Shown: positions 26,758 through 47,577 of the stretch, piece after piece
How the letters are laid out: every line of letters begins with the position of its first letter
Numbering within the stretch: position 1 is the first letter of the stretch
Source of the DNA: Candidatus Woesearchaeota archaeon B3_Woes
GTDB lineage: Archaea; Nanobdellota; Nanobdellia; Woesearchaeales; B3-WOES
Direction: 5' to 3'
NCBI GenBank assembly: GCA_005222965.1
Contig: NJBG01000001.1
Location: forward strand, 799,533-863,532
DNA: 64,000 nucleotides
Notes under the pieces: generated by a model
Told to the model about the DNA's origin: nothing
Database searches by the model: none
The model's input: only the letters and a program-made list of their open reading frames with translations
Translations under genes and position numbers: made by a program

Positions 26758-28485
26758 TCAATCTTTTTTAATATATTCTCCTACAATTGGAAAAGGTTTT
26801 CCATGATCGTGAAGCCATTGAGTGTTAACTGATAAAATTATATTGTCATTATTCCCCTGAAGTGATTTAGTATTTACCCAATCTCCTAATATTCCTTTTG
26901 CTTTTTCACCAACAAATATAGGTACAGTTCTAAAATATTGATATGCTCTCTCGCTTGCTGAACCTTTAAAATCAAATGTTTCCCCAGCAATCATATAATG
27001 ATAACCATCTTCAACTTTTCTTCTTCTTAATGTTGTACTACCTAATAAATTCCAAACATCAGCAGAATTACCTAACTCCCCTGCATCATTTACCTTAGTC
27101 CCCCCTCTTATGTCATCCATATACTCCCATCCATCATCTGCATGATATTCTGGATTGGTGCTGGGAGTCCATTCTCTTCCTTTTGTTTGTATAATCAAAC
27201 CACCCCATTCCTCATCAGAAAGATCAACCTCCATTGGTTTTCCAGAACCATAAAGATAACGTGCCAATGCCTTAAGCCCCCTTCCATAATCACCAGTCAT
27301 TTTATTTAAAAGAGAAGTAGGAGTAGAAACAATAGAATAATATAATGGTGTAGATATTCCTCTTGGGTTTTCAGATTTTGAATCATCAAATGAATGAATT
27401 ATATTTGTTTCAAACCCAATAATACTTCCCTTTTCTAACTGCTTCCCTTCTTTAAAATAAAAAACACCATTATTAGACTCCTCTTTTTTTAAAACCAATT
27501 TTATTTCACTATCATCCTTTTGATATACTACAAACACATCATAATCACCATCATCAGTTTCTATTTCAATCTTGTCATTACCTATAGCATTCACATAAAA
27601 TTCATAAATAAGAGATTTACCCTTAAATCTAGAACTATATATTATTGTGCTTATTTCTTCAGAAGGAATATCATCATAATTAGTTCCAACCAACATATCA
27701 GAAGAAACTTTTATTTTAGTTCCTTTAGGATTTTCAAATTCTGTTGGATTTTCTTCAGATGCTATTAATAAAATACTATCACCATACACAACTTTAGCAA
27801 ACCCTTTTACAGATCCTTTTATTTCATTTATTGAATCATCATGTGTTTCTTCTATAATAACCCATTCACCTTGTGTATCAATTATTTGTGAAGATAAATC
27901 ATAATAAATCATTTCTCCTGATTTTGGTTTATAAACAAAATCATCAATCCCAAGATCTTTTTTACTAATCATTATGCCAGTTGTACTATCATAACTAACA
28001 TCCTCACCCTTAATAATCCCACCATCTATCTCATTCCAAATAAGATTAACATTATTTAATTGAACAACACCATCAACAACAATAACAGTCCCACCTTTTC
28101 TTAATTTAAAAATTCCATTTGTTCCAGTAATTTCTCCACCAGATTCAATCGTTATTGTCCCACTATACTCTTTAACATCTGCAGACCCCCCATCTAAATA
28201 AACAAGAATACCAGTATTAGAAGTTAATACAGCTTCACCACTATTAATAAAAGCAAAACCTAAGATTGGGTCAATGGAAATATCATCTGGAGTAACAATA
28301 GATCCAAAAAATTTTTCAATAAATTCATCAAAATCCATGCCATAGTTTTCCCTTACAAAATCTCCTTTTACTTGTATATCATCTGATTTTTTTGGTATTA
28401 ATACAATTTCAAGTGGAGCAACAACAAAAAAAGAAAACACAACTAAAAAAACAATACTAATAACTAAAACATTTACCTTATTCAT
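26758..28485 (-). CDS. Secreted modular protein: conserved beta-rich N-module plus C-terminal colicin M-like domain
   Basis: Signal peptide; N-module homologous to 44333-46249; C-terminal MTGD......ALARYLYGSG, LLGSTTLR, ETFDFK..R and GKPFPIVGE resemble colicin M motifs in order. Confidence 0.55.
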   Translation of the reverse strand: MNKVNVLVISIVFLVVFSFFVVAPLEIVLIPKKSDDIQVKGDFVRENYGMDFDEFIEKFFGSIVTPDDISIDPILGFAFINSGEAVLTSNTGILVYLDGGSADVKEYSGTITIESGGEITGTNGIFKLRKGGTVIVVDGVVQLNNVNLIWNEIDGGIIKGEDVSYDSTTGIMISKKDLGIDDFVYKPKSGEMIYYDLSSQIIDTQGEWVIIEETHDDSINEIKGSVKGFAKVVYGDSILLIASEENPTEFENPKGTKIKVSSDMLVGTNYDDIPSEEISTIIYSSRFKGKSLIYEFYVNAIGNDKIEIETDDGDYDVFVVYQKDDSEIKLVLKKEESNNGVFYFKEGKQLEKGSIIGFETNIIHSFDDSKSENPRGISTPLYYSIVSTPTSLLNKMTGDYGRGLKALARYLYGSGKPMEVDLSDEEWGGLIIQTKGREWTPSTNPEYHADDGWEYMDDIRGGTKVNDAGELGNSADVWNLLGSTTLRRRKVEDGYHYMIAGETFDFKGSASERAYQYFRTVPIFVGEKAKGILGDWVNTKSLQGNNDNIILSVNTQWLHDHGKPFPIVGEYIKKD

Positions 28486-28581
28486 TGTTTATCTTTAAAA
28501 TAAGCTTATGATTATATAAAATTATCTTAAAGAAGAAAATAAACAAACATTTTTAAACTAATTCTTATTATTTTTAGCTTA

Positions 28582-28926
28582 ATGAGTCAGAAAAAAGAAG
28601 AAAAAGCAAAACAAGAAGCATTTCAACAGGAAATAAGAAGAACAAAACTTCCTCGCGGTAATCAAAGTTTTGGAATTCTTGAACAGCGTTTAGGAGCATC
28701 TCGCTTAAGAGTTAAATGCCTTGATGGAAAAAGCAGGGTTTGCAGAATTCCTGGAAAACTAAAAAGAAGATTATGGGTAAGAGAAGGAGATATTGTAATT
28801 GTTGAACCCTGGGAATTTGGCGGCGATGAAAAAGGAAATGTTATTTTCAAATATTCTAAATCACAGGTTCAGTTCCTAAAAAACAAAGGTTATCTTAAGA
28901 AAATCGAAGAAGTTGATGAATTCTGA
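28582..28926 (+). CDS. eif1a: Translation initiation factor 1A
   Basis: VKCLDGKSRVCRIPGK..RLWVREGDIVIVEPW. Confidence 0.97.
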   Translation: MSQKKEEKAKQEAFQQEIRRTKLPRGNQSFGILEQRLGASRLRVKCLDGKSRVCRIPGKLKRRLWVREGDIVIVEPWEFGGDEKGNVIFKYSKSQVQFLKNKGYLKKIEEVDEF

Positions 28927-28980
28927 TTTTACCACTCTAGAATAGAAATCTTTATATATTAGGTTCTTTCTTTTGTTTAT

Positions 28981-29616
28981 ATGAATTGGGGGAGATATTT
29001 TGCATTACTTATTGTGTTATTTCTAAATCTGTTTACAATACTGGTGCTTGGTTTAAGAATTAATTTCTTAGGCGAGTTATTTGTATTCTTATTATTTTTA
29101 TTATTCTCTCTCATAATGTTAGTTTCAGTCTATAATAATAAACATAGTGAGCCTTTTATTTCATTATTCTTTTTAGTTTCTTTAATCAACTTATGGTATA
29201 TCAAAACATCTTTTGTATCTAATCCTCATGTTAATGTAGGTTTAAGAGGTTGGTTCTTGTTTGGTTTGACATTACTCTTAAACGCTATTGGCTTTTTGTT
29301 GTTTGCATCTTTGATTACAAAAAAACAACATGAAAGAGAAGAAGTAATTGAAAGGGTTGTTGAACCTTTTGAAGAACCAGAAGAAATTCCACCTGTAGAA
29401 GAGTATGGAGAACCTAAAAAAACAGTTTCTAAAAAAACATCTGTTAAGAAAACATTTAAGCCTGGAAAATTCATTGCAAGCAGCAATAGTACTTATTATC
29501 ATGCTGCTAAATGCGACTGGGCCAAAAAGATTTCTAAAACAAATAGGGTATGGTTTAAATCAAAAGAAGACGCTCGTAAAAAAGGCTTTAAACAACACTC
29601 TTGTTTAAAGAAATAA
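28981..29616 (+). CDS. Membrane protein with C-terminal Ada-like metal-binding domain
   Basis: 4 TMs, then YYHAAKCDWAKKI...NRVWF.S...A...GFK.HSC. Confidence 0.7.
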   Translation: MNWGRYFALLIVLFLNLFTILVLGLRINFLGELFVFLLFLLFSLIMLVSVYNNKHSEPFISLFFLVSLINLWYIKTSFVSNPHVNVGLRGWFLFGLTLLLNAIGFLLFASLITKKQHEREEVIERVVEPFEEPEEIPPVEEYGEPKKTVSKKTSVKKTFKPGKFIASSNSTYYHAAKCDWAKKISKTNRVWFKSKEDARKKGFKQHSCLKK

Positions 29617-30015
29617 TTATTCTTTTATAAAATAAATTATTAATAAGATAATTCCAACACTTAAAGCAGAATCTGCAATATTAAAAGAAGGCCAAATTCT
29701 TAAATTAATAAAATCAATAACACCTTGGTATAAAATCCTGTCAATTAGATTTCCAATAGCTCCACCAACAACTAAACCAGAGCCTAGCTTTAATTTCCAA
29801 TCACCTTTTTGAATTTTATCATAATTAAATAAGAATAATCCTATAATTACAATTGATAACCAGGCTAATATTGAACTAGCTCCTTTGAATAAGCCAAACA
29901 AAGACCCAGAATTTGTTATATAACTAATATTTAGAACCTTTACTAAATATTTTGTTAATTGATCAACTACAACTATAATAAAAGCACTTAAAAGAAATAT
30001 ATTTTTCTTTACCAT
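29617..30015 (-). CDS. lspA: Lipoprotein signal peptidase (signal peptidase II)
   Basis: DQLTK, NSGSLFG, GAIGNLIDR, VIDFI and WPSFNIAD motifs, with both catalytic Asp residues. Confidence 0.92.
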   Translation of the reverse strand: MVKKNIFLLSAFIIVVVDQLTKYLVKVLNISYITNSGSLFGLFKGASSILAWLSIVIIGLFLFNYDKIQKGDWKLKLGSGLVVGGAIGNLIDRILYQGVIDFINLRIWPSFNIADSALSVGIILLIIYFIKE

Positions 30016-30443
30016 CCTCTTTGCTGCTGTTGTGGGGGCTCTTGTTCACCCTCTGCAATTTGTTCAATTTTTTCAATCTTATGGCTTAGATTGTCTAAAA
30101 CAGCTTTGATAGTATCAACCTTTGATGAAATTATTTGCACATTTTGTGATAAAGAATTAATATCATTACCTTGAACAGGTTGTTGTTGATTCATTTGTTG
30201 AATAGCTCCTGGTTGTTCAGGTGGTGTTTCTTCAACAGGCTCTAGATTTTGAGCAGGATTTACAGCTGCTGCAGATTCTGAAGGTAAGTTCCCACCTGGT
30301 TGTTGTCCCATATCTCTTTCCAAACCAGTTGGTGTGTTTAATCCAAGTCTATCTCCTATTGGCTCTCCATGAACACTCGCATTACTCTCAGAACCAGGAC
30401 CAGGAACATCTTTTTCCTTCTTAAACATACCCAAAATACCCAT
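30009..30443 (-). CDS. Hypothetical protein (disordered region plus C-terminal coiled-coil)
   Basis: GAGGTGA RBS; QIISSKVDTIKAVLDNLSHKIEKIE. Confidence 0.7.
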   Translation of the reverse strand: MGILGMFKKEKDVPGPGSESNASVHGEPIGDRLGLNTPTGLERDMGQQPGGNLPSESAAAVNPAQNLEPVEETPPEQPGAIQQMNQQQPVQGNDINSLSQNVQIISSKVDTIKAVLDNLSHKIEKIEQIAEGEQEPPQQQQRGW

Positions 30444-30510
30444 TATTTCACCTCTTTTAAGTTATATTAAGAATTAGACTATATAAAGATTATTGTTTAT
30501 TCAAGAATTA

Positions 30511-31035
30511 CTACAATTTACTCTTTTTAGCTTTATCAGAAACAATTGCAGAGTTTCCAGAAGGATCTTCAATAATTATTTTTAATTTATCCTTCCCCCA
30601 CATAGCCTTTGTTATTTTTTTGAGCATGTTTTTAGCTTTTTTCTTTAGAGCTGGGTCTTCTTCATTATCTCTTGTTGATTCTAATTGCTTTTTAACCCTG
30701 TTTAATAAGCCTTCAATGTTTGATATATAACCTTCTGCATTTGTTCCAGGCTCAATTGTCATTATATGTGGAATTTTAACAGTCGCTTCACTGCTTTTAA
30801 CAATTCTTATTTTCATATCCTTTTCAGAGTCAACATCAATTGTGAATTTAGTTGGTTCGTGCTGTTCTTCTGCTTCAATATCTGCTTTATGGAATTTACA
30901 ACTGCTGCAGCTCATTGAGAACAAATAAACCTTTCCAAAGTATGGAATTTCCATCCCCTCTTCTATTAATGTTAAGGTTTTCTTTAGGCACATTGGACAT
31001 TGTTGGCCTTTCACTGTTTGTGGTACTTTTTCCAT
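30511..31035 (-). CDS. ZPR1 zinc-finger domain protein
   Basis: CPMC..IPYFG..CSSC, EGYISNIEGLL and DPSGNS motifs. Confidence 0.92.
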   Translation of the reverse strand: MEKVPQTVKGQQCPMCLKKTLTLIEEGMEIPYFGKVYLFSMSCSSCKFHKADIEAEEQHEPTKFTIDVDSEKDMKIRIVKSSEATVKIPHIMTIEPGTNAEGYISNIEGLLNRVKKQLESTRDNEEDPALKKKAKNMLKKITKAMWGKDKLKIIIEDPSGNSAIVSDKAKKSKL

Positions 31036-31216
31036 GCCTAAATAATGAGGGGCCGAATTTAAAAACTTATTGGTATTAGAATCTATATGTTATTTGGGTT
31101 GGGTTTTATCCATTTTCTCACTCCCTTTAATAAAAAACAACAATCTAAAATTATCTTTTTATTTTGAGTATATTTAAATACTAGTTTGTCTATTCTTAAC
31201 TTAAAGAGGTGATATA

Positions 31217-31549
31217 ATGGCTAAAGGAAATGTAGGTAAAGTACAGGATGATAAGCTTTGGGGATTCCTAGCTATATTTTTAGGAATAATTGGTTTTCTT
31301 ATTGTTTTATTAACCAAAAGAGACAGTGAATATGCAATGTACTATGCAAAACAATCACTTGTGCTATTTATTGCTTGTATATGTGTTGGATTTGTTGCAT
31401 GGATACCATTTATTGGATGGTTTCTTCTAGGACCCATCTTGTATATAGTGATATTGGTGCTTTGGGTAATAGGGTGGGTGCGTGCATTATCTGGAGAAAT
31501 GAAACCAATTCCTATAATAGGTAAACTTGCTGAAAAAATAAAATTATAA
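31217..31549 (+). CDS. DUF4870-like membrane protein
   Basis: YYAKQSLVLF, IPFIGW and PIPIIG motifs; GAGGTGA RBS. Confidence 0.75.
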   Translation: MAKGNVGKVQDDKLWGFLAIFLGIIGFLIVLLTKRDSEYAMYYAKQSLVLFIACICVGFVAWIPFIGWFLLGPILYIVILVLWVIGWVRALSGEMKPIPIIGKLAEKIKL

Positions 31550-31563
31550 AGGAGGTAATGTGA

Positions 31564-32046
31564 ATGAAAGCACACTATCTATTGGTAGTATTGTTACTAA
31601 TAGGAATTTTAATGATAGGTGGATGCGTCAAAACGCCAATAAAGCAACTTGTAAGTGAAGAACTAACTAAGCAGTCAACAGGTGAAGAGCCATCAACAAG
31701 CAAAGCAGGAGTACCAACAACAGATGTTTCTGGAAAAGATATTGCAAATGTGCCAAGATATCCAGGCTCAATAAGAAACTATGCTGGAACAGTTATGGGT
31801 GGAGATATGATTGCATATCAGACATCGGCAAGCGTTGATACAGTTGCAGTTTTCTATGAAGAACAGCTGCCAACAAAAGGATGGATGATAATAGCTTCTA
31901 CCATAGACCCAGATTTAAGAGGAATTACAGCAACAACAGACTCAGGAGAGATGGCAATTATTGCAATTGCACCTAGTGAAGAATACTCTGGGTACACCTC
32001 TATAAGCATAGTATCTAGAAATGTTTTACCAACTGGTTTAAGGTAG
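31564..32046 (+). CDS. Putative lipoprotein
   Basis: Lipobox-like LMIGGC; VPRYPGS and FYEEQLP..GW motifs; GGAGGT RBS. Confidence 0.7.
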   Translation: MKAHYLLVVLLLIGILMIGGCVKTPIKQLVSEELTKQSTGEEPSTSKAGVPTTDVSGKDIANVPRYPGSIRNYAGTVMGGDMIAYQTSASVDTVAVFYEEQLPTKGWMIIASTIDPDLRGITATTDSGEMAIIAIAPSEEYSGYTSISIVSRNVLPTGLR

Positions 32047-32144
32047 TATCAGTAAATTAGTATATAATCAGATGAGTTAATTATTGGATAACTAGATATG
32101 TAAAAAAGAGTTAGTAGTTTAAATTAAGAAAAAGGAGGTAATAA

Positions 32145-33110
32145 ATGAAAGCACACTATTTATTGATAGTTTTATTCTTAATTGTGGTTTTAGTAATTAG
32201 TGGATGCGTAAAAACGCCACAAACACCAAGTGTTGAAAACATTCTAGAGAATCCTGACGAGGCAATAACCACCTGTGAAAAGATGTCTGAATCTGATAAG
32301 GAGAACTGTTATGATAATGTTAGTTCTGCCTTGTCTGAAGCTGGGCTATTTGATAAGATGATGGAAGTATGTGGCAAAACAGAGTCAGACGATTGCTATT
32401 CTGAACTTGCAATTAGTGCACAACTTGTCGATGCCTGCAAAAAGATTTCTAGCAGCACCACGAAAAGGGACTGCTTATTCAGCCTGGCTAGCCAAAATAA
32501 TACAGCAGCTTGCAAAGAAATGACCAATCAATTTGACAGAAACAGATGTCTTTTTGACATCGCCATGCAGACTGAATCACTGGAAACCTGTGGTGAAATA
32601 AATGATGTTTCTATAGAAGAAGACTGCTATATGGCATTGTCCAACCTTTTTAGGAGCACAGACCCTGACAAGGCATTTGAAGCTTGCGAAAAAATGTCAG
32701 AAAAGGATGACTGCTATTGGGATATCATACAAAATCTTAAGAAAACAGATCCAAATGTTGCGCTCACTGCATGCTCTAAACTGTCATTTGACATAGATAA
32801 TTGTTATTTTGATATGGCAAGAGTTCTGCTTCTAACTGACATTGACAAAGCAGTATACGTCTGCGGGAAAATGGAATACACTTTTAATAAAAATGACTGC
32901 TACATGATGATTGTCAATACACCAAAAGTTACATTAGCAAACCCTGACAAGGCAATAGATGTTTGCGGAAAGGTGACTATGGATATGACTATGTGCTACG
33001 AAAGCATAGCAAAAATCATTACAGAGACTGACAAGGACAAAGCAAAGGAAGTTTGCGGCTACATTACTGAGGATGACTTCCAAATGCACTGTGAACAAAT
33101 TTACGGCTGA
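32145..33110 (+). CDS. Putative lipoprotein with tandem Cys-pair helical repeats
   Basis: Lipobox VISGC; repeated C(x8-10)C[YL] units. Confidence 0.75.
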   Translation: MKAHYLLIVLFLIVVLVISGCVKTPQTPSVENILENPDEAITTCEKMSESDKENCYDNVSSALSEAGLFDKMMEVCGKTESDDCYSELAISAQLVDACKKISSSTTKRDCLFSLASQNNTAACKEMTNQFDRNRCLFDIAMQTESLETCGEINDVSIEEDCYMALSNLFRSTDPDKAFEACEKMSEKDDCYWDIIQNLKKTDPNVALTACSKLSFDIDNCYFDMARVLLLTDIDKAVYVCGKMEYTFNKNDCYMMIVNTPKVTLANPDKAIDVCGKVTMDMTMCYESIAKIITETDKDKAKEVCGYITEDDFQMHCEQIYG

Positions 33111-33250
33111 TTCTTTTTTTATTTTCTTTACAATACAAAAATTTATCATATTCTAAGAAATAATACATATTAAACAAAAAATTAACAAATAAATATTTTG
33201 AGAATTATTTAAATCTTTGCAGTAGTTATAGTTTTTAACCTCTAAGAAAT

Positions 33251-33661
33251 CTACTCCTGAAAGCCTTCTGCTGGGGATTCTTTCACTTCAGTTGTTTCTT
33301 TTGTTCTATAAATCTGAGCAAAAGAGGGTGTTACAACAACATAATCTTCACCAAAGCCAGCAATCTCACCTTCAATAGCATCAGTTGTTTTCTTAAGTTT
33401 ATTTATAGCCCTTTTCAACTCAATCAAATCCTTATCTTTCAAAGGTCTTATATTAACCAAGGCAATTGTCTTACCATCCCTTAAACTATCTAAAATAGGT
33501 TTTATGCTTTCAAAATCTTTCATAACAAAAGGACGAACAATAATTTTTGAACGAACATCGCTTGGAGAATCAGTATCAAGTTCAACATAACCTTCTTCAA
33601 CATCTGCTTCTACTTTCTCATGATCTTCTTTATTTGATTTTAAAAAGTTTAAAAAACCCAC
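33251..33661 (-). CDS. sepF: Cell division protein SepF
   Basis: Amphipathic MGFLNFLK; LRDGKTIALVNI..LKRAI..GEIAG...VVVTP. Confidence 0.88.
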   Translation of the reverse strand: MGFLNFLKSNKEDHEKVEADVEEGYVELDTDSPSDVRSKIIVRPFVMKDFESIKPILDSLRDGKTIALVNIRPLKDKDLIELKRAINKLKKTTDAIEGEIAGFGEDYVVVTPSFAQIYRTKETTEVKESPAEGFQE

Positions 33662-33728
33662 TTTGACACCTCGAATGATATTATTAACTTGTTAATAATT
33701 AATTTGCAATACATATATTTAAAGGTTT

Positions 33729-34823
33729 CTATTCTTTTTCCTTACTAGTACTAAATCTTTTTATTAATAAAAATCCTTTTTCAGCTTCTATACAATACTC
33801 TTCTTTATCATCAAACTTAGTCATTCCAGTCACAGCAGAAGGAAGAAGTATTCTATTACCACGAAAATCAAGATTAGTTATAATCTCTTTTAATTTATCA
33901 CCACCTTTTATACCCATATCAACCATTATCTTAGAAGCATCTTTTACTTTTCCTTCTTCTTTAAGCTTTTTAGCATTTTTATGCAGTAATTTAGCAATCT
34001 CTTCAGCAACATCAATCTTAGTAGCTTTAGTTATTCCTTGTAATCCTGGTGATAGATTTATTTCAATTATAACAGGACCTTTTGCACTTTCTAATATATC
34101 AACAGCACATATATCAGCACCAAGAACCTTTGCAGCTTCTACAGCTATCTTTTTTGTATAGCCATCTAATTCACACGCCTTTCCTTCTCCACCTATATGT
34201 ATATTTGCTCTCATCTCTTCTCCTTGGGATTCACGATTCATAGAAGCAACAACCCTATCACCAACAACAATAGCTCTTGTATCTATTCCTCCAGTTTCAA
34301 CAAACTCCTGAATCAAAAAAGGCTGTCTTAAAGCTGATAAAGCATCCATCATAGATGATGCAGAGCCAAAAGAATCCGCAAACATAACTCCTTTTCCCTG
34401 AGTTCCAGATGGGAATTTCATAACAATTGGATAATTAACTTTTTCCAAAACCTTTTTAGCAGCATCAACAGAACTAGCTAAGTAAGTTTTAGGCATAGGT
34501 ATCTTGTTTTTCTGAAGCTCTAATTGAGTCAAAACCTTATCATGACCAATTGTAAATGCCTCAGGAGAAATAGAAACATATGTTTTATGAAAAAGAGCAG
34601 TTGAGATAGCTCTCATAATAGGTTGATACCTAAAAGAACCCATGATATGAACACAATCATACTTATCAATCTCCTTTCCTTTATATAAAACCTCTAATTC
34701 TCCAACAGTATTTACTTCTATTTCTTTTAAATTAAGATGATCAACTTTAGTAAAATATTTCTCCATAGCTGTAACTATCCATTTTGAGCTTACACTTCCC
34801 AAACTTATCAAAGCGCCTTTCAT
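33729..34823 (-). CDS. rimK: RimK-family ATP-grasp alpha-L-glutamate ligase with C-terminal extension
   Basis: HDK, GTQGKGV, QEFV, RANIHIGG and EINLSPG motifs. Confidence 0.88.
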   Translation of the reverse strand: MKGALISLGSVSSKWIVTAMEKYFTKVDHLNLKEIEVNTVGELEVLYKGKEIDKYDCVHIMGSFRYQPIMRAISTALFHKTYVSISPEAFTIGHDKVLTQLELQKNKIPMPKTYLASSVDAAKKVLEKVNYPIVMKFPSGTQGKGVMFADSFGSASSMMDALSALRQPFLIQEFVETGGIDTRAIVVGDRVVASMNRESQGEEMRANIHIGGEGKACELDGYTKKIAVEAAKVLGADICAVDILESAKGPVIIEINLSPGLQGITKATKIDVAEEIAKLLHKNAKKLKEEGKVKDASKIMVDMGIKGGDKLKEIITNLDFRGNRILLPSAVTGMTKFDDKEEYCIEAEKGFLLIKRFSTSKEKE

Positions 34824-34832
34824 TTTTTCAAC

Positions 34833-34860
34833 GTGTCAGAAATCAAAGATTTCTGAGCAC
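34833..34860. repeat. Intergenic palindrome/hairpin GTG-TCAGAAATC-AAA-GATTTCTGA-G-CAC
   Basis: Perfect 9-bp stem with 3-nt loop plus outer pairing. Confidence 0.6.
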
Positions 34861-34862
34861 AT

Positions 34863-35225
34863 TCAAACACCTTTGGTTTTTGATGGATCAATTAAAAATC
34901 CTTCTTTTAGTACATTCTGACCAATTAAAACCTTAAATTTCATATGACTTCTATCAGCAATTGTAAATTCAGCCTTTAGTTTTTTACTTCTTATCTTTAC
35001 TTCTGCTTCCATAACAGGTCTCAGTGTTCTGCCATGAGTTGAAACAACTAATTTTCTTCTTATGATTGGACCTAAATGTAATTCAGCTGCTAATTTTGCA
35101 TCTATCGCACTCTTAACAGCACCAGTATCAATACGAGCTTTTACTTTCTTCTTCTTAGTAGAGTTTCCAAACAAAGTTACGTCTTCTACAAACCCCACAA
35201 CTGTACGCTTTTTGTACTTATCCAT
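34863..35225 (-). CDS. RimB-like (RimK-associated) retropepsin-fold protease
   Basis: KARIDTGA..SAID, RPV and FTIADRSHMKFKVLIG motifs; adjacent to rimK. Confidence 0.82.
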   Translation of the reverse strand: MDKYKKRTVVGFVEDVTLFGNSTKKKKVKARIDTGAVKSAIDAKLAAELHLGPIIRRKLVVSTHGRTLRPVMEAEVKIRSKKLKAEFTIADRSHMKFKVLIGQNVLKEGFLIDPSKTKGV

Positions 35226-35406
35226 CTGATTAGTACTCTTTATTTTCTTTATAAACTTTACTAAATTAGAGAATATTATAAGAAAATAAATATTACAAGT
35301 ATACTTAATTACTAAATAGTAGTTACAAAATAGAAAGATTTATATACTAATATTATCAACACCATACAACACAAATAATCAATAAAATATAATAGGAGGA
35401 AATAAA

Positions 35407-35763
35407 ATGAAAATGTATAAACCACTTGTGATAGGAGCACTAGCTGTTTTTACTGCTGCTAATGTATATGCAGCTGATCTATCTAATAAATTGATCAAAA
35501 AATACAGTTTAAGTCCTAAACAAGTACAAGAGTTTAAACCATTTGAATTTTATAGCAATAAAACACTTGAGAAAGCATTGAGAAACTATACAATCCAGAA
35601 AAAAGATGATATGGCTTTTGGAGAGAAACACCAAACAATCAAAGAGTTTCTAGAAGAAGTTGATGCTGCTGATGGTGAAACAGATGGCTATATAACTGAT
35701 GATGGAGTTGAAAGACAAAAAGAAAGCGATGCTTTTGAAGGCATGGATTCTATGTTTGATTAA
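35407..35763 (+). CDS. Secreted hypothetical protein with DxxDGxxDG Ca-binding-like loop
   Basis: Signal peptide (VYA/A); VDAADGETDGYI; GGAGG RBS. Confidence 0.65.
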   Translation: MKMYKPLVIGALAVFTAANVYAADLSNKLIKKYSLSPKQVQEFKPFEFYSNKTLEKALRNYTIQKKDDMAFGEKHQTIKEFLEEVDAADGETDGYITDDGVERQKESDAFEGMDSMFD

Positions 35764-39378: not shown

Positions 39379-39423
39379 ATATACCCTTCACTCACACCAC
39401 CCTTTTTAAAGTTTGTGAAATAA

Positions 39424-40698
39424 TCAATCCAATACTTCACCAACCAAATAGTGCTTTGTAATATCAATAATTTGAACCCTGACTTTATTACCTAATTTAA
39501 ATTCACCTTCTATAACAATCGGTTTATATGCAAAATTTCTTCCCATAAAAGTACCTTTCTTGCCCTTTTCATCAATCAACACACTACCCCCCCATTTTGA
39601 CCATTTCTTATTTACACTAAAACCAACCCAGTCAAACACACTTGTCAATAATCTGCTTCTGTTTTTAATATCTTCTCCAGATAATTGCTCCATTTTAGCA
39701 GCATCTGTTCCAGGCCGAGGATTGAATCTTGAAATATTAATAACATCCGGCTTTATCTCTTCAACCAAATTCAAAGAATCCTGAAACTGCTCTTTTGTCT
39801 CTGTAGGAAAACCAACAATAATATCAGTTGAGATAGTAATATGCTCAAAACTCTCCCTAAATCTGTTAACAATTTTCTTGAAATCCCCAACAAAATACTT
39901 TCTTTTCATTAACTGCAGAATCTCATTATTCCCAGACTGAACAGGGATATGAATAAACTTGAATATTTTTGGATTTTTATAAACCTCAATAAGATCATCT
40001 AACATCCTAATAACATGATCAGGATTCATCATTCCAACACGAATCATAAAACCCCTATCAATCTTAACAATCTCTTTTAATAATTCAACCAAACTTGAAT
40101 TAATATCCTTTCCATAAGCTCCTGTATCCTGAGATGTTAACCAAATCTCTTTGCATCCGTCATTTAAAGCAGTATTAATCTCTTTGATTATCATCTCAAT
40201 TGGATAAGACTTCAAATCACCTTTGATTAATTTAACAGAACAATAAGAACAATACCCCAAACAACCAGAAGATATAGGAATTATCCCAACAATCTTATTC
40301 TTCCTAACTCTAGGAAGATTTATTTTATTATCAGATGATTTTCCCAAAATCTCTACAACATTATCATTTATTGTCTCTTCTATAACAGAAACAATCTCCT
40401 TGATATTATGAGTAGAAATCAGACTAGCTTCTGGAACTATCTCTCTTATCTCAGGAATAATACTTTTAGTTATACACCCAGCAACAATAAATTTCTTATT
40501 TTTTAATTCACTCAATTTCCTTATTTTCTTTAAAGCATTAGTATTATTTTTTACAGTGCATATGTTGATAATAATAACAAAAGCATCTTCAGGACTATTA
40601 ACTATCTCAAACTCGTGTTCAGCCAATAAACCCTTCATTATCTCTGATTCTGAAAAGTTTATTGAACATCCTGACGTATCAAAATATACTTTTACCAC
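39424..40698 (-). CDS. mtaB: tRNA t6A37 methylthiotransferase (archaeal MtaB/MiaB-like radical SAM)
   Basis: UPF0004 domain (GC..N, NICTVK, AGC), CLGYCSYC, RVGMMNP and C-terminal TRAM; GTG start at 40698 inferred. Confidence 0.85.
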   Translation of the reverse strand: MVKVYFDTSGCSINFSESEIMKGLLAEHEFEIVNSPEDAFVIIINICTVKNNTNALKKIRKLSELKNKKFIVAGCITKSIIPEIREIVPEASLISTHNIKEIVSVIEETINDNVVEILGKSSDNKINLPRVRKNKIVGIIPISSGCLGYCSYCSVKLIKGDLKSYPIEMIIKEINTALNDGCKEIWLTSQDTGAYGKDINSSLVELLKEIVKIDRGFMIRVGMMNPDHVIRMLDDLIEVYKNPKIFKFIHIPVQSGNNEILQLMKRKYFVGDFKKIVNRFRESFEHITISTDIIVGFPTETKEQFQDSLNLVEEIKPDVINISRFNPRPGTDAAKMEQLSGEDIKNRSRLLTSVFDWVGFSVNKKWSKWGGSVLIDEKGKKGTFMGRNFAYKPIVIEGEFKLGNKVRVQIIDITKHYLVGEVLD

Positions 40699-40776
40699 AT
40701 TAATAAAAAACAAACACCCATTTAAAAAGGTATTCGTTAAATTTATAAGCAATTCTTTGTTTTTCTCAAATTAGAA

Positions 40777-41241
40777 ATGACAATTTTGTATATTTTATTA
40801 CACAAACCTCAAACAATTGATGAATTTGTCCAGGAAGTACAAAGAAAAGGATACACATCAGTAGATATAGTCATAGCACAAAACGGAAAAAACAATTTAA
40901 AGAGTATACACGGAGATTTCTTTGAAGCACATTATACAGTCAGGCTTGAATCAGGCAAAATAAGATTAAAACTAGCTACATATGATGCAACATCAAATAC
41001 ATTTAATGGTGAGAAAAATGTTGAGGCCATCCACGAAATTAAAGAAAAAGAAGCATTAATAGCATCCCTGATGTATTCTGAAAGTGTTGCATATAGATTA
41101 CAACAAAAAGATTTAGAAACAACAATTAATGGAAAACCAATAGAAAATGCCAGAAATAGATCTAATCAATGTAGACAACAAATAGAAAAACTAGACAAAC
41201 TAATAATAAGAAACAAGTATCAAGGAGACCTATTCAAATAA
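40777..41241 (+). CDS. Hypothetical protein
   Basis: 154-aa ORF with no recognised motif. Confidence 0.6.
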   Translation: MTILYILLHKPQTIDEFVQEVQRKGYTSVDIVIAQNGKNNLKSIHGDFFEAHYTVRLESGKIRLKLATYDATSNTFNGEKNVEAIHEIKEKEALIASLMYSESVAYRLQQKDLETTINGKPIENARNRSNQCRQQIEKLDKLIIRNKYQGDLFK

Positions 41242-41281
41242 ATCAATAATCTTTTAAATAAAAGAAACTATTTCTTCAATT

Positions 41282-42025
41282 ATGTCGCGCTTCGGATGGG
41301 TTGTTCACAAAGTTATTGAAAAATCAGATATAGTTCTGGAAGTATTAGATGCAAGATTCATAGACGAAACAAGAAACAAAGAACTTGAATATAAGATTAA
41401 GAATAGGAATAAGAAACTGATTCATGTAATAAACAAATGCGATTTTGTAAATAAAAAACACCTCGATAAAATAAAAAAAGACCTAGAAAACTGTGTTTTT
41501 ATTTCTGCGACAAAACATCTAGGAACTACATTATTAAAACAAAAAATAACACTGCTGGCCAAACAAAAAAAAATAAAAGAACCAATAATCGGTGTAATTG
41601 GTTATCCTAATGTTGGAAAAAGTTCTCTAATAAACGCATTAAAAGGAAAACATTCAGCAAGAACATCATCAGAAGCAGGATACACAAAAGGAAAGCAGCT
41701 TCTAAGAATAAGTAAAGACATGATGATGATTGATACACCTGGAGTTATTCCAAGAGACAAAAACAAAGACCTAGATTTAGTACTAGTTGGAGCAAAAAAC
41801 CCAACAACAATAAAAGATCCTGATTTAGCAGTTATAAAACTAATAATAAAAAATCCAAAACTCATAGAATCATACTATGATGTAGTACCAGAAAGAAACA
41901 TAGAAAAAACAATAGAAAAACTAGCATTAAAACTGAATTTTAAGATAAAAGGAAATCTGCCTGATGTAGAAAGAACCTCAAGGAAAATATTAAGAGACTG
42001 GCAGTCAGGCAAAATAAAGAAATGA
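41282..42025 (+). CDS. Circularly permuted ribosome-biogenesis GTPase (RbgA/YlqF family)
   Basis: LDAR, NKCD, GYPNVGKSS and DTPG in G4-G1-G3 order. Confidence 0.92.
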   Translation: MSRFGWVVHKVIEKSDIVLEVLDARFIDETRNKELEYKIKNRNKKLIHVINKCDFVNKKHLDKIKKDLENCVFISATKHLGTTLLKQKITLLAKQKKIKEPIIGVIGYPNVGKSSLINALKGKHSARTSSEAGYTKGKQLLRISKDMMMIDTPGVIPRDKNKDLDLVLVGAKNPTTIKDPDLAVIKLIIKNPKLIESYYDVVPERNIEKTIEKLALKLNFKIKGNLPDVERTSRKILRDWQSGKIKK

Positions 42026-42711
42026 TTCTAAAAATATACAATACATTATTAGAAGAATACAGCTATCAGGGTTGGTGGCCAGTAACTCCTTCAGGAAGTT
42101 GCCAAGGTAAACTAGAGCCTATCTATGGATTAAGAGCAAGAACAGACAAACAAAAACTAGAGATTATTTTTGGAGCAATTCTAACTCAAAACACCTCTTG
42201 GAAAAACGTAGAAAAAGCAATTATTAATCTAAATGAAAAAAACTTAATTAACATAGATAAGATTCTAGAGATTGAACACGAAAAACTAGCAAAAACAATT
42301 AAATCAGCAGGATACTTTAATCAAAAAGCAAAAAAACTAAAGAATGTCTCAAAATTTCTAAAAAAATATCCAATTTCTAAGTTAGAAAAAACAGATTTAG
42401 ACAACGCAAGACAACTTCTCCTTAATGTTAATGGAATCGGACCTGAAACAGCAGATTCAATCTTATTATATGCTCTAAACAAACCAATTTTTGTTGTAGA
42501 CGCCTACACAAAAAGAATTTTTACAAATTTAGGCTTAGTAAAATCAGAAGATACTTATGAAGATATCCAAAAACTATTCATGGATCATCTGCCAAGTGAT
42601 GCAAAACTCTTTAATGAGTATCATGCCCTAATTGTTCAACACGCAAAAAAAGCTTGTAATAAAAAACCAAAATGTGATTTATGCTCTCTAAAGAAAATCT
42701 GTAAAAACTAA
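42022..42711 (+). CDS. Endonuclease III-related HhH-GPD glycosylase
   Basis: AILTQNTSW, GIGPETADSILLY, VDAY and C-terminal Cys cluster. Confidence 0.9.
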   Translation: MILKIYNTLLEEYSYQGWWPVTPSGSCQGKLEPIYGLRARTDKQKLEIIFGAILTQNTSWKNVEKAIINLNEKNLINIDKILEIEHEKLAKTIKSAGYFNQKAKKLKNVSKFLKKYPISKLEKTDLDNARQLLLNVNGIGPETADSILLYALNKPIFVVDAYTKRIFTNLGLVKSEDTYEDIQKLFMDHLPSDAKLFNEYHALIVQHAKKACNKKPKCDLCSLKKICKN

Positions 42712-44282
42712 ACCTCTTCTAACAACTTAATAACTCTTTTAACACCTAGCAGCATAATAAATCCAGCTAATTTAGGACCTTTTTCTTTATTTAACAAAAC
42801 TCTATATGCTCCTCTAAAAAATTCTAAAGGTTTTGTTCCAGCTTCATTACATATGTTCATAAAATCTTCATAAAGTGAATTTTCATCATACTTTTTACTA
42901 CTAAGCCTATCTTTTAAAATCCCTAAAGCCTTTTTCTGTTCAGAACTTAGAGATTTTTTAACTTCAGAAGAAACTTCTTCTTGTACTTCAAACTTCATAT
43001 CATCAGGAGCGTGCTTTTCTAACCAATTACCAACGCATTTAGTTCTTAACTTAAGCCTTTCCTCATCCTCTTTGTTCTTTAAATCATAATACTCTTTTAT
43101 TTTATCAAAATTTCCTTGATAAAGCTGATACATTGTTGTTAGATGCCTGAATAAAGGTTGGAAAGGCATTTTCTTAGAAAGTTCTACAGCACTTAACTCA
43201 TAAATCCTTTTCTGCTTTTCAAATTCCCTCTTATCTTTAGCTTCCTCTTTTTTATAATAGATTCTCTCGCATCTATCAAAATCTTCATAATACTTTAAAA
43301 CATCTAAATCAAATGATATTGCAAATTCTGATAAAGGCCTGGAACCAGCAAAAAACCACCTAACCATTGACGGCTCATAAACATCTAAAACATCTTTTAA
43401 AGTAACAACCACTCCCCCTGAACTTGAAAATTGGCCTCCTCCTTTAATGCTTATCCAGCCAAAACCATAACCTAATGCTGGCTTAATACCATAAACCTCT
43501 TTTGCAAGCTTTGGTGCAATATCAAAAACACCTCCAGAAGCATAATGGTCTTTACCAGCACTCTCAAAATCAACACCCTTATACTGCCAAAAAGCAGGAA
43601 CCTGAATACGATACTTTAGTTTTATAAAACCCTTTTTTCTAAAATCAAATTTCTGCCAATTTCCATCATTATCTTTATATTCAATCTCATATCCACCAGG
43701 ATACCTTGTTTCTGTAGCCTCAAAATGAGTCTTTTCATCATAAACAGAAATAGGTAGCCATTCTTCTGCTAAATCTTCTTTTCTATATTCATTAAGAAAT
43801 TCTTTTATCTTATCTGTCTTCTCCAAAGCTGTTTTTATTTGGTCAGCTAAAACGCACTTCTGATATTGCTCGCTGTTTCTAATAATTTCAGGACTTAACC
43901 CAACAATTGGCAAATAATGTTCAAAATCTTCCTCAAAATGAGTTGTATAATTCTTATGTTTTCCGTCAATAACATCAGGAACATCTACTAAAGGTTTTCT
44001 TAAACACTTTTTTAAAACACCCTGTTTTGGCATATTTACAGGAACCTTTCTAAAAACATCATAATCATCCCAATAATGGCAGTGAATAGCCTTTTTCCCT
44101 TTATGTCTCAGAGCTTTTGCAATAAAATCTCCCATAATAAACTCTCTAAAATTACCGACATGTAGAATACCGCTTGGAGTTGCACCAGTAGCAACAACAT
44201 ACTCTTTTTTATTCCCCCTTTTCTCAATAATAGAATCTGCTGTCTGATCAGCCCAATGAGTTCCTTCTGATTCTTCAGTCAT
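42708..44282 (-). CDS. lysS: Lysyl-tRNA synthetase, class I
   Basis: HWAD, TPSG.LHVGNFRE, GKDH and GPKL motifs. Confidence 0.95.
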   Translation of the reverse strand: MTEESEGTHWADQTADSIIEKRGNKKEYVVATGATPSGILHVGNFREFIMGDFIAKALRHKGKKAIHCHYWDDYDVFRKVPVNMPKQGVLKKCLRKPLVDVPDVIDGKHKNYTTHFEEDFEHYLPIVGLSPEIIRNSEQYQKCVLADQIKTALEKTDKIKEFLNEYRKEDLAEEWLPISVYDEKTHFEATETRYPGGYEIEYKDNDGNWQKFDFRKKGFIKLKYRIQVPAFWQYKGVDFESAGKDHYASGGVFDIAPKLAKEVYGIKPALGYGFGWISIKGGGQFSSSGGVVVTLKDVLDVYEPSMVRWFFAGSRPLSEFAISFDLDVLKYYEDFDRCERIYYKKEEAKDKREFEKQKRIYELSAVELSKKMPFQPLFRHLTTMYQLYQGNFDKIKEYYDLKNKEDEERLKLRTKCVGNWLEKHAPDDMKFEVQEEVSSEVKKSLSSEQKKALGILKDRLSSKKYDENSLYEDFMNICNEAGTKPLEFFRGAYRVLLNKEKGPKLAGFIMLLGVKRVIKLLEEV

Positions 44283-44332
44283 TCTAAAAACAAAAGAAAG
44301 GAGTTATATAAAGATTTCCCTATCTTGAATCA

Positions 44333-46228
44333 TTAAGGTGTAGGATTTCTAATTATAGTTGTTCCCATATTCATGTCTTTTAATTCTTCTTGAGTTAAAG
44401 GTCTAGTTAAGTCAGGATTTGCTAATAGTCCTAATATTCTTTCTTTTATGATATTTGGTGTATCCATTGTTGATGATGCTTTTGGAAATGTACTAATTCC
44501 TGTTCTACCATCTTGATTAACTAACACATCATATTCTGTACTATAACTAAATCCCTCATCTACTGAAACAAACTCATTTCTATATAGTGCACCACCACCA
44601 TTTGGATCACCCATTATATAATCAGCATGTATATCCATTTTTTCTCCTTGATCGTATTGTCCATTACCATTACTATCAGTAAAAGATCCTTTAATTACTC
44701 CTCTTGGCATACCTATTTCTTCTCCATTTACTTCAACACCAAAATGATGCACTTCTTCTCCAAAATGATTACTTACAACACCCATTTCTAAAGCATTACT
44801 AGCAAATTCTTTAACAACTTCTGAAACATCAACATCCCCAACAATGTCTTGGAATTCAGGAGGGGGAGGCATCAAATCTAAATAATCACTCAACCTACCA
44901 TTAAAATCATAAAAATCACCAGCTACGTCCCTAGCTGTTGCCCCAACTTCATCTCCTGTCAACTCTTTTCCATTATAAATCATCCATGGAACACCCTCTC
45001 CTTCCCACCTTCCATCAACATACATAATATTTGTTCTCATCCCACTTAAATCACTTTGTGAAATTACACTATCTTCACTAAAAACAAACCTTACTACACT
45101 AGAAGCAGGAGATTCTGTTCTTCCATCAGCTAAACGCTCAAATGTAACAACTTCCATATCCACTCTAGAACCCCCTTCAATTTCATTTACAAAAATATTA
45201 TTAATATCATCTGGCCCAGGTCCAACATTCCAAAACTCTATATCAATTTTATTATCCTCTTTTTCATCATTTGCAGTATCAATAAATAAATCAGAAGTAA
45301 AAGGATAAGGATAAGTTCTAGTTTCTGATTCCATTAGTATTATACTATTTCCATCATTTACACAACCTGGTGCTGCAGCTGCTACACCAATACAAGTATC
45401 CTTAGATACACCGATAGTTACCTGACTACTTTCATCTCTTTCTTCTTCCTCATTTTTAATAACCATAGTCAAAACAGAACCGCCATCTAGAGTAAGACTA
45501 TTAAGATAATAATTATCACCAAAACTAACAGCCCCATCTAACAATATCATTTCTTTATTAACAATTTCATTATCTACAATACTTCTATGCATTATACTAA
45601 CCCATCCATTGTCAACAACAGTTACTTTATTAGTTGCAATATCATAAACAAAAGGTAGATTATCAAACTCAGAATTAATCTCAATATCAAATATCTTAAG
45701 ATTTTTACTAGTTATTTGTCCAGTTTCACTATCATAGCTAATCCTTTCACCATGAATCATAACATGTCCATGTTCAATAGTTGGATGATTGAATTCAGTA
45801 CCTTCTTTAAGATCAACATTTTGAAACTGAATAACCCCATTAACAACATCAACACTACCACCTTTACCAAAATTAAACCTACCATTTGCTCCCCAAATCG
45901 TTCCACCATCTTGAATCTCTATTGTTCCAGTATAAGGCTCTTGATCAGAAGAAGAAACAAATACAGTACCTCCGTTCAACACAACAGGAAAACCAATATC
46001 AGTTAATACAGCATAACCTGTATTAATAAAAACCGTACCTGTGTATGGATCAATAGAAACATCATCTGGAGTAACTGTTGTTCCTTCTCCAAACAGTTCT
46101 ATTAAAAATTCTTCTTGTTCACCTCTACTCATTTCATTATAAGGTTTTTGTTCATCATCAGAAATAACAACAAAAGAAAACATAACTAAAAAAACAACAC
46201 TAATTACTAAGATTTTTGATTTATTCAT
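44333..46228 (-). CDS. Secreted modular protein: shared N-module plus unrelated acidic C-terminal domain
   Basis: Signal peptide MNKSKILVISVVFL (start 46228 or 46249); VTPDDVSIDP...INTG.AVLT shared with 26758-28485; DSNGNGQYDQGE EF-hand-like loop. Confidence 0.7.
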   Translation of the reverse strand: MNKSKILVISVVFLVMFSFVVISDDEQKPYNEMSRGEQEEFLIELFGEGTTVTPDDVSIDPYTGTVFINTGYAVLTDIGFPVVLNGGTVFVSSSDQEPYTGTIEIQDGGTIWGANGRFNFGKGGSVDVVNGVIQFQNVDLKEGTEFNHPTIEHGHVMIHGERISYDSETGQITSKNLKIFDIEINSEFDNLPFVYDIATNKVTVVDNGWVSIMHRSIVDNEIVNKEMILLDGAVSFGDNYYLNSLTLDGGSVLTMVIKNEEEERDESSQVTIGVSKDTCIGVAAAAPGCVNDGNSIILMESETRTYPYPFTSDLFIDTANDEKEDNKIDIEFWNVGPGPDDINNIFVNEIEGGSRVDMEVVTFERLADGRTESPASSVVRFVFSEDSVISQSDLSGMRTNIMYVDGRWEGEGVPWMIYNGKELTGDEVGATARDVAGDFYDFNGRLSDYLDLMPPPPEFQDIVGDVDVSEVVKEFASNALEMGVVSNHFGEEVHHFGVEVNGEEIGMPRGVIKGSFTDSNGNGQYDQGEKMDIHADYIMGDPNGGGALYRNEFVSVDEGFSYSTEYDVLVNQDGRTGISTFPKASSTMDTPNIIKERILGLLANPDLTRPLTQEELKDMNMGTTIIRNPTP

Positions 46229-46233
46229 CTTAC

Positions 46234-47577
46234 CTATGGTCTTTCCCATTTTTCAACTTCTACGATAAATGAATCACTATCAGATTCTGTATTTACATCA
46301 AATACTAAGACAGTTACAGTATATCTTCCTTCTTGACCAGGTTCTGGTGCAAAACTCATATCACCAGTTGAAGGATTAATATTAAAATTAGGCAAAGAAG
46401 TTTCTACAGCAAACCAAATAGCATCTCCATCAGGATCTGTTGCATGTACAGGTGCTCTAACCAAAGCTGAAGAAACGTCATCCCCAACATAAAAATGAAG
46501 ATCTTGAAGATCTTCAATTACAGGTGGATTATTTTCAGTAACAACCTCTAACTCAAACACAACACTACCTTCATTTCCATTATCATCCTCTGCTTTAATC
46601 ATAACAGAATGTGTTCCTCTATCTTCTATATTTGGAGTAAATCTAATTACACCAGTATTTTCATCAATATCAAACAAACCAGAAAAATCACTAAATTTAA
46701 GATTAGTAGCATTTAATGAAACGACCTGATAAACAAATTCATAATCAGGGAAAGCCTGTTGAGGTGGTATTGATTTTAGTTGAATATCTTCAGCCACTGC
46801 TTGTAATTCATACCAACCATATTGGGCTGCAAAATTAAATAATAAAGTTTTCTCATCATCTAATAAATCATTAAAAATCAAAGAATAAACAACAGAATTA
46901 TTATCACCATAAATTAAATCATAAGTAAAGCCATTATTATAAGCAGCTAATGATAAATGACCAATAGGAACAAAATCAGGATTTTTTTGGTGTTCTACAG
47001 CAAAATCTGAAAGAATATTATACAATTTATCAAAATTAAAATTATAATCCAAATAAAAACTCTTTATATCTGTTTTTGATTCCTGTTTTTTAACAGAAAT
47101 AGGATACTTAACCTTCATATTAAGCATTTTACCCAAAGAAGTATCAACAGAAATACTGCCTGCATTAATCTCATATCCAATTTCCCTAAAAGATTCAAAA
47201 TCATTAATACATTCTGGCAATTTATCTTCCATATACTTAGAAAATTCTCTTTCAATTACACTCTTCGAAGGAAACTTTGATTCTCCTAAATAAAAATAAA
47301 AAGGAATTTCAATAAATTCATAATCATAACCATCAACTACATTATAATAACCACCTTGTAAACTCAGCCATATAACTTCATCTTCAACAATATCCTTGAT
47401 ACAGTTATCAACATAATTTTTTATTGGAATAACATCAGCAGGTATTTTTGAAGTTTCTTCTATCCAAACATCCCCTCTCATTGTTAAGTCTGTTTGCATA
47501 GAAAAAAAGATTAAAGATGCGATAATAATAATCCCAATTATTATAAAAATAGTTACTTGGCCTCTTTTATTAAGCAT
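46234..47577 (-). CDS. Class III signal-peptide protein with C-terminal cadherin/Ig-like repeats
   Basis: KRG/QVTIFIIIG; FDIDENTG..RFTP, NNPPVI, ATDPDGD and INPSTG motifs; the longer start overlaps the tRNA. Confidence 0.75.
   Translation of the reverse strand: MLNKRGQVTIFIIIGIIIIASLIFFSMQTDLTMRGDVWIEETSKIPADVIPIKNYVDNCIKDIVEDEVIWLSLQGGYYNVVDGYDYEFIEIPFYFYLGESKFPSKSVIEREFSKYMEDKLPECINDFESFREIGYEINAGSISVDTSLGKMLNMKVKYPISVKKQESKTDIKSFYLDYNFNFDKLYNILSDFAVEHQKNPDFVPIGHLSLAAYNNGFTYDLIYGDNNSVVYSLIFNDLLDDEKTLLFNFAAQYGWYELQAVAEDIQLKSIPPQQAFPDYEFVYQVVSLNATNLKFSDFSGLFDIDENTGVIRFTPNIEDRGTHSVMIKAEDDNGNEGSVVFELEVVTENNPPVIEDLQDLHFYVGDDVSSALVRAPVHATDPDGDAIWFAVETSLPNFNINPSTGDMSFAPEPGQEGRYTVTVLVFDVNTESDSDSFIVEVEKWERP

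Follow-up and report, generated by a model that had tools for sequence, protein, structure and literature searches.

Polymorphic toxin systems such as Rhs/YD, CdiA and LXG/MafB combine a conserved N-terminal carrier with many unrelated C-terminal domains, and in Rhs proteins the slot after the Rhs core and its DPSG cleavage motif is where the exchangeable toxin is carried. Among archaeal surface proteins, Methanococcus has type IV-like pilins (Epd) that depend on EppA and bear class III signal peptides with Gln at position +1. As stated in part of the survey by Zhang et al. (2012, PMC3482391), polymorphic toxin systems are generally absent from archaea except for some methanogens and haloarchaea, and passages of a study of archaeal dark matter note divergent pilins and polymorphic toxin loci (PMC6393860). 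Secreted peptidoglycan hydrolases that kill bacteria, prominent in Nanoarchaeota, and a patchy set of colicin M (ColM) homologues are described for archaea in sections of PMC12352652, and predatory gene sets or a predatory lifestyle are proposed for Woesearchaeota in passages of PMC9723730. Here we analyze two genes, denoted P0001 and P0002, in a 64,000-nucleotide stretch (hereafter, the window) of the genome of Candidatus Woesearchaeota archaeon B3_Woes (contig NJBG01000001.1, positions 799,533 to 863,532). The two products share a carrier module and end in unrelated tips, one of which also occurs on Rhs proteins of the same archaeal order, and P0002 adjoins a gene for a pilin-like protein, P0004, that is a conserved neighbor of the family. 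We consider it somewhat probable that P0001 and P0002 are secreted modular cell-surface proteins that belong to a polymorphic-effector-like display family, with interchangeable tips aimed at other cells.

Paralogs with a common carrier

The initial annotation, made from the sequence alone, described P0001 and P0002 as dispersed paralogs with a shared N-terminal module, similarity fading in mid-protein and unrelated C-termini. The features in question are these:

26758..28485, minus strand: P0001, 575 amino acids (aa), in which a Sec-type signal peptide precedes the constant beta stalk and a predicted toxin-type domain at the C-terminus
27370..28329, minus strand: the constant module as present in P0001 (residues ~53-372), for which an elongated all-beta structure is predicted
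26761..27360, minus strand: variable tip of P0001 (residues 376-575), a Rhs-CT-type domain for which modeling suggests a possibly colicin M-like fold
44333..46249, minus strand: P0002, 638 aa, with a signal peptide, the constant module shared with P0001 and an acidic tip that is unrelated to that of P0001
44969..46153, minus strand: the constant module as present in P0002, placed at residues 33-427 by profile and ending at the junction motif VPWMIYNG
44336..44959, minus strand: variable tip of P0002 (residues ~431-638), with an acidic, D/N/G-rich loop and no enzyme signature

Both open reading frames (ORFs) are present at the coordinates given. In BLASTP, their first ~190 residues align (197 aa, 46% identity, E = 2e-31), a stretch that takes in the signal peptide and the sequence motifs that had been quoted for the two proteins; all other segments had E >= 1.2, so that BLASTP yields no second significant stretch. 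The shared part nevertheless extends further than had been supposed. Constant-region profiles built without P0001, P0002 and P0005 (a full-length relative of P0001, 52% identical) still match residues 53-370 of P0001 (E = 1e-65) and residues 33-427 of P0002 (E = 4e-47), and accordingly the shared module comprises about 320-395 aa, with identity between the paralogs of 45% in its first half and 19% in its second half. The last ~200 aa of each protein, by contrast, have separate sets of relatives and fall into separate BLAST classes, so the unrelated C-termini of the initial description stand while its mid-protein limit of similarity has to be moved. The true start of P0002 is probably the second Met (MNKSK, residue 8, base 46228), because the MNK.. 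start then agrees with the N-termini of P0001 and P0005. No further copies of the carrier are found in the source genome, which comprises 1.02 Mb in 4 contigs and is 96% complete. The possibility that the region is a horizontal-transfer island was rejected given that the 16 kb between the two ORFs hold housekeeping genes and the G+C content is even.

The claim that the N-terminal module is not known from any described system is borne out. Searches with P0001 and P0002 of Pfam, NCBIfam and PHROGs produced nothing above cut-off for the constant module, those of Protein Data Bank (PDB) sequences no credible match, and a search of the ESM Atlas with the whole of P0001 no usable match. A literature search of limited coverage found no description of this carrier or of archaeal mini-Rhs proteins (see below). 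The AlphaFold model of the carrier is confident, all-beta and stalk-like, with no clear structural relative and a weak likeness to OspA/MORN-type sheets. All full-length members start with a Sec-type signal peptide, read by eye from the sequence, that ends in an A-x-A/Q-like site, and in many of them the constant part is closed by a conserved junction, [YW]PW[ML]I[YT]NG; the VPWMIYNG-type junction of P0002 is also present in P0006, G083 and G394a/b. The carrier appears to contain two sub-domains or more, of which the distal one is the more widespread, because most of the matching genomes of the order match mainly the distal half (model positions ~145-334).

The family is small. A HMMER search of 1.84 billion representative proteins with a profile of the first 146 columns gave 14 matches at E <= 1e-3, of which two are P0001 and P0002 themselves and nine (P0005-P0011, P0013 and P0015, three of them fragments) were judged to be true relatives; P0012, P0014 and P0016 were excluded because they are repeat proteins that align over and over to only a short stretch of the profile. 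Within the order, profile A3, which spans the entire constant region, matches 10 of 401 genomes, a tally that takes in the source genome and the unpublished genome G244. The full module is matched only in G083 (E = 5.6e-41) besides the source genome, the remaining genomes matching mainly in the distal half. Several other searches returned little: a word-indexed protein search with P0001 residues 1-200 returned P0001 alone, missing the 46%-identical P0002, and with the A3 profile recovered only P0002 and P0011; a single-protein search of 60 relatives yielded nothing, although the later profile search found relatives; profile A1 against genome contigs yielded nothing and A5 only contigs already known. 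The word-indexed tool is nearly blind to this family, and therefore its negatives are not counted here as evidence of rarity. Judging from these matches, the family appears to be restricted to one DPANN order (Nanoarchaeia/Woesearchaeota-type).

Diversity of the tips

When 17 family proteins were cut after the constant region and their tips compared all against all (BLASTP, E <= 1e-3; G244 left out), they fell into 12 mutually unrelated classes:

P0001 and P0005, joined by BLASTP
P0002, alone by BLASTP
P0006, G083, G394a and G394b, with long helical repeats
P0009 and P0013, in which DUF1402 scores 18-20 bits and thus stays under its cut-off of 27
eight singleton classes, including G238 (HELAH motif) and G375 (GHHY..SSCNS)

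A constant stalk with a variable payload, as first proposed, is thus what is observed, and the homologs do not have constant C-termini. That many different tips exist is clear, whereas the expected abundance of enzymatic tips is only suggested. In P0006 and G394b, the helical repeats are followed by a ..NNHG.. / ..DSC[FY]S.. segment that may be caspase-like at the level of motifs, the sole family support for this reading being a Raptor_N match in G394a (E = 0.037). Comparison of P0013, of the G246 and G238 tips and of the tip profile with PDB sequences, and of the tips with PHROGs, named no tip. At the G394 locus (L020:6549-13305, plus strand), two family genes, both of the P0006 tip class, lie in tandem behind a single pilin-like gene.

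Could the tips simply serve nutrition? Under this alternative, the family would consist of scavenging exo-enzymes, such as peptidases or wall-degrading hydrolases, that the constant module tethers to the cell surface and that digest host or environmental polymers without any antagonism. The protease-like motifs, the sub-threshold lysozyme-clan-like matches in relatives and the small genome (1.02 Mb) are compatible with such a role, as is the 'vampiristic' lifestyle proposed for Woesearchaeota in part of PMC9723730. Nevertheless, we find scavenging quite unlikely: a set of 12 unrelated tips with no conserved enzyme suits conflict diversification better than nutrition, and the P0001 tip is common to Rhs carriers, which are conflict systems. 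In practice, scavenging overlaps with the effector-like display that we favor.

The P0001 tip on Rhs proteins

The link to Rhs comes from the search with residues 376-575 of P0001, which matched three of the 401 genomes of the order, namely, the source genome, G070 (E = 6.6e-41, 49% identity) and G139, where two ORFs carry the P0001-type tip. The three ORFs of G070 and G139 are 371-403 aa long, and all three contain TIGR03696 Rhs_assc_core at 60.7-69.7 bits, compared with a cut-off of 32.5; the motif ..NNPM[KN]YVDPSG.. ends the Rhs core and the P0001-like domain comes directly after. By its position, the P0001 tip would be a polymorphic-toxin cassette. Neither G070 nor G139 is matched by the carrier profile; hence the same tip is found on two unrelated carriers. 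Cassette exchange, in the sense of one tip on different carriers, is therefore observed for the P0001 tip, the P0002 tip having only a stand-alone relative.

The Rhs proteins of this order are themselves a distinctive group. These mini-Rhs ORFs are mostly 320-530 aa long and comprise the core domain only, with up to 13 copies per genome, often in tandem; they are present in 58 of 301 genomes of the order at E <= 1e-3 and in 53 of 301 above the TIGR03696 cut-off, the unpublished genome G183 being included in both tallies. Examples are the locus G168:C35:57667-63404, the 13 copies in G139 and the 11 each in G006 and G085. The source genome has no TIGR03696 match, whereas control genomes do match, and NCBIfam has no match in P0001 or P0002. 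P0001 resembles the mini-Rhs proteins in the tip domain (at most 49% identity), in being secreted, as predicted for both, and in the absence of an adjacent immunity gene; it differs in having neither Rhs core nor DPxG motif, the tip being joined directly to the beta carrier.

A possible colicin M-like fold

Colicin M-family bacteriocins are lipid II-cleaving enzymes with a catalytic motif Asp/Tyr/Asp..His-Arg; the title of the PDB entry for ColM (3da4) says 'phosphatase'. The invariant residues in the alignment of the P0001-type tips are YL.G.G, EEW, GWE and GE.FDF.G. The structural model derived from this five-sequence alignment is usable (mean predicted local distance difference test score 76.9, predicted template modeling score 0.70), and no Foldseek match to it was obtained at E <= 1e-3, colicin M (3da4) being the 14th at E = 0.21. 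In an exhaustive VIA pass, the only matches that span most of the 210 residues are four bacteriocins and one type VI secretion system (T6SS) effector, given here with their three VIA values against the P0001 tip model:

Syringacin M (4fzl): 4.7; 134; 13%
PaeM (4g76): 4.4; 141; 15%
Colicin M (3da4): 4.2; 131; 19%
Pectocin M1 (8jc1): 4.2; 143; 18%
T6SS effector C-terminal domain (9jdi): 3.7; 137; 9%

A search of BFVD with the P0001 tip yielded nothing, and neither phmmer nor a profile search matched it in the PDB. The label 'ColM-like' given to this tip at the outset thus draws no support from sequence in Pfam, the PDB or PF14859, while the comparison of structures lends it weak support at the level of the fold. 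On this evidence, a ColM-like fold is plausible, at roughly even chances, with a likeness at the fold level only, and lipid II would be a candidate target by extension from such a fold.

The P0002 tip and the adhesin alternative

For the P0002 tip, the search of the 401 genomes yields a sole relative, in G389: a secreted protein of 187 aa that stands alone (E = 4.5e-6, 29% identity) and has the acidic D/N/G-rich loop in common with the tip. Two further matches are marginal, and the unpublished G273 is the source of one of these. Pfam, NCBIfam and the PDB give no match to this tip. The description of the tip as EF-hand-like is based on the single acidic loop and is backed by no family match. 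By its sequence, the tip appears to be non-enzymatic, and a binding or calcium-dependent role is our guess.

This tip, devoid of an enzyme signature and with a small secreted protein as its sole relative, is one argument for an alternative under which P0001 and P0002 would be ordinary paralogous surface or S-layer-associated adhesins, with the beta module and the tips as structural or binding elements that attach the cell to a host, the Rhs link reflecting a reused binding domain, or a domain of some other kind, rather than a toxin. The elongated beta carrier with its weak OspA/MORN likeness, the Ig-like adhesin domains in the partner P0004 and the absence of an immunity gene can all be cited in its favor. 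It is harder to reconcile with the P0001 tip, which occurs exactly in the Rhs toxin slot, after the DPSG cleavage motif, and whose structural matches over the full domain are confined to bacteriocins and a T6SS effector, or with the protease-like motifs in several relatives (HELAH; NNHG..DSC). We regard the adhesin interpretation as unlikely.

Immunity genes and the neighborhood of P0001

No same-strand ORF of at least 40 aa is present downstream of P0001 or of the Rhs-borne copy in G139, and none of at least 150 aa downstream of the copy in G070. P0002 is followed by a class I lysyl-tRNA synthetase gene, with no immunity gene downstream. Orphan cassettes are lacking as well, each tip occurring once in the source genome. 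The absence of an immunity gene is to be expected if the producer does not possess the target (for example, the bacterial envelope), and it is equally to be expected if the tips are non-toxic.

A gene for a Yip1-domain polytopic membrane protein (26026-26613, plus strand, 49 bits) is convergent with P0001 and lies 145 bp from its stop codon. It was considered as a possible opposite-strand immunity gene, but no counterpart is found beside the Rhs-borne copies. Elsewhere in the window, a 132-aa ORF at 29617-30015 (minus strand) has a 97-bit match to Peptidase_A8 (lipoprotein signal peptidase II), which is unusual in an archaeon and may be linked to the anchoring of surface proteins.

A conserved pilin-like partner

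A conserved pilin-like partner of the family, which had escaped the initial annotation, is encoded directly upstream of P0002:

46234..47577, minus strand: P0004, 447 aa from the MLNKRGQ start; pilin-like, with a predicted class III signal peptide

P0004 and the beginning of P0002 have 16 bases in common. The N-terminus of P0004 consists of KRGQVTIF and a hydrophobic stretch (MLNKRGQVTIFIIIGIIIIASLIFF), and the signal is followed by a conserved ~230-aa domain and the Ig-like Pfam domains He_PIG (35.4 bits) and Big_9 (31 bits). The N-termini of P0004 and its homologues read M..K[KR]GQ[IV]T[IV]F and continue into a hydrophobic stretch, and G6, Q7, I12 and G15 are invariant across nine P0004 homologues, the pattern of a class III signal. 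In a survey of nine related regions with ten family genes, the N-terminal part of P0004 is present at eight of the ten, as a separate gene immediately upstream in seven cases (including the unpublished G244) and as a fusion in one; the remaining two are the second gene of the G394 tandem pair and the G385 gene, which runs off its contig. A phmmer search with P0004 recovers all eight, with E from 4e-24 to 5e-73, and leaves every other ORF of at least 150 aa in those regions unmatched. The fusion, in G246 (L019:6079-9195, minus strand; 1038 aa), unites a P0004-like N-domain (residues 4-267), the distal carrier (~457-718) and a 320-aa tip.

In the window, P0001 is located 16 kb from P0004, among housekeeping genes. 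On the metagenome contig of P0005 (L045:426-3574, plus strand), a copy of P0004 with 81% identity lies 30 bp downstream of P0005; therefore, in a close relative, a P0001-type gene is linked to the pilin-like gene. The contrast between 81% for the P0004 counterpart and 52% for the P0001 counterpart implies either that the carrier/tip gene evolves much faster or that a different paralogue is involved.

The source genome encodes one prepilin peptidase (Peptidase_A24/PF01478, 64.7 bits) and has two matches above cut-off to T2SSE-type ATPases (PF00437). P0004 resembles the Epd pilins in its class III-type N-terminus and in the presence of a Peptidase_A24 prepilin peptidase in the genome. Unlike them, it is large (447 aa), contains the novel ~230-aa domain and Ig-like domains, is paired and once fused with a carrier, and is known from genes alone. 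Beyond the window, at G000:C1:762-774 kb and 662 kb (L042, L043), there are four ORFs of 1045, 1097, 780 and 654 aa with a P0004-type N-domain (E from 5e-8 to 5e-20), no Pfam matches and no detectable carrier module; a Schlafen/AlbA_2-HATPase_c_4 gene is located among these large ORFs.

The conserved adjacency to a gene with a class III signal peptide, the single fusion and the presence of a prepilin peptidase and assembly ATPases in the genome raise the question whether P0001 and P0002 are themselves components of a type IV pilus-like fibre, as minor subunits or at its tip, such that the pilin-like gene and the carrier gene together build part of the pilus and the variable ends reflect antigenic or receptor variation. 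This we deem very unlikely inasmuch as the carriers have Sec-type rather than class III signals, no assembly genes lie beside the pair in the window, and a Rhs-type tip would be left unexplained.

A scenario for the display of interchangeable tips

The findings can be accommodated in the following scenario for the display family. The Sec signal peptide would be cleaved and the protein exported, after which the elongated all-beta carrier would present the C-terminal tip at the cell surface. The carrier probably docks on the pilin-like protein encoded upstream (P0004 in the case of P0002); by its class III signal peptide, the pilin-like protein would belong to a type IV pilus-like structure or to the base of one. 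Effectors or adhesins directed at other cells would form the tips: that of P0001 a putative antibacterial toxin cassette that is also carried by mini-Rhs proteins of the same order, and that of P0002 a non-enzymatic, probably calcium-binding or adhesive domain. The predicted fold of the P0001 tip is closest to the catalytic domain of colicin M, and combined with the missing immunity gene this would fit an antibacterial effector directed at a target that the producer does not have.

A more specific version of this scenario, which we consider rather unlikely, portrays the system as a pilus-linked contact weapon in which the new carrier sits on the pilin-like protein and exposes interchangeable effector tips to neighboring cells, and P0001 bears a ColM-like, lipid II-cleaving antibacterial toxin against which no immunity is needed. 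Archaea lack lipid II and hence require no immunity protein against a toxin that cleaves it. The producer itself is probably host-dependent.

Several observations weigh against effector-like display and have to be set against the evidence above. Toxicity, secretion, expression and binding are all predictions from sequences and models. The adjacent immunity gene, a defining trait of polymorphic toxin systems, is absent, as are orphan cassettes. The family has few members, and most of its order-level matches cover only the distal half of the module. In its own genome, P0001 is situated between the Yip1 gene and aIF-1A, with no adjoining pilin-like gene. Its tip model rests on five sequences; Pfam, Colicin_M included, has no match to P0001 at E <= 1 or to the Rhs-borne copies at E <= 0.1, and PF14859 has no match in the source genome (G000) and none above cut-off in any of 401 genomes of the phylum. 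The P0002 tip shows no enzyme or toxin signature. Finally, DUF1402 and DUF4347 in other tips score 18-20 bits, under their cut-offs, the HExxH and His..Cys readings are at the level of motifs, and most of the other tips have no family match.

How, then, does the family relate to the described systems? With polymorphic toxin systems it shares, in addition to the basic architecture of a conserved N-terminal carrier and many unrelated C-terminal domains, the occurrence of one tip on different carriers and a conserved motif that marks the junction where tips are swapped. It differs from them in a new all-beta carrier without Rhs, filamentous haemagglutinin, PAAR or LXG parts, in the lack of an immunity gene and orphan cassettes, in the DPANN producer, in the pilin-like partner and in that some tips look non-toxic. 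Because two defining traits are present but the immunity-gene and orphan-cassette traits are not, we do not classify the family among polymorphic toxin systems; of the initial comparison with polymorphic toxins, which is partly supported, the variable tips and the P0001 tip in the Rhs slot stand, whereas there is neither immunity gene nor orphan cassette, and the P0002 tip has no toxin context. The archaeal secreted peptidoglycan hydrolases described in sections of PMC12352652 are likewise secreted proteins, with exchanged catalytic and binding modules, that are thought to act on bacteria and to need no self-protection; those enzymes, however, consist of hydrolase and binding domains known to Pfam, whereas the carrier and tips analyzed here have no Pfam match and are accompanied by a conserved pilin-like partner.

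Implications

The family offers a confidently modeled carrier of unclassified fold, a junction for the exchange of tips, a pilin-like partner and a tip shared with the abundant mini-Rhs proteins, and it seems to provide effector domains with a hitherto undescribed carrier on which they can be swapped. Putative new enzyme and toxin domains that are invisible to current family libraries are a further yield of the carrier and tips. For DPANN archaea, whose dealings with other cells are poorly documented, cleavage of lipid II by the P0001 tip, if it occurs, would amount to a concrete antibacterial weapon in a Woesearchaeota-type member and would explain the missing immunity gene, and should the system prove to be a pilus-linked weapon, it would be direct evidence of tiny archaea attacking bacteria.

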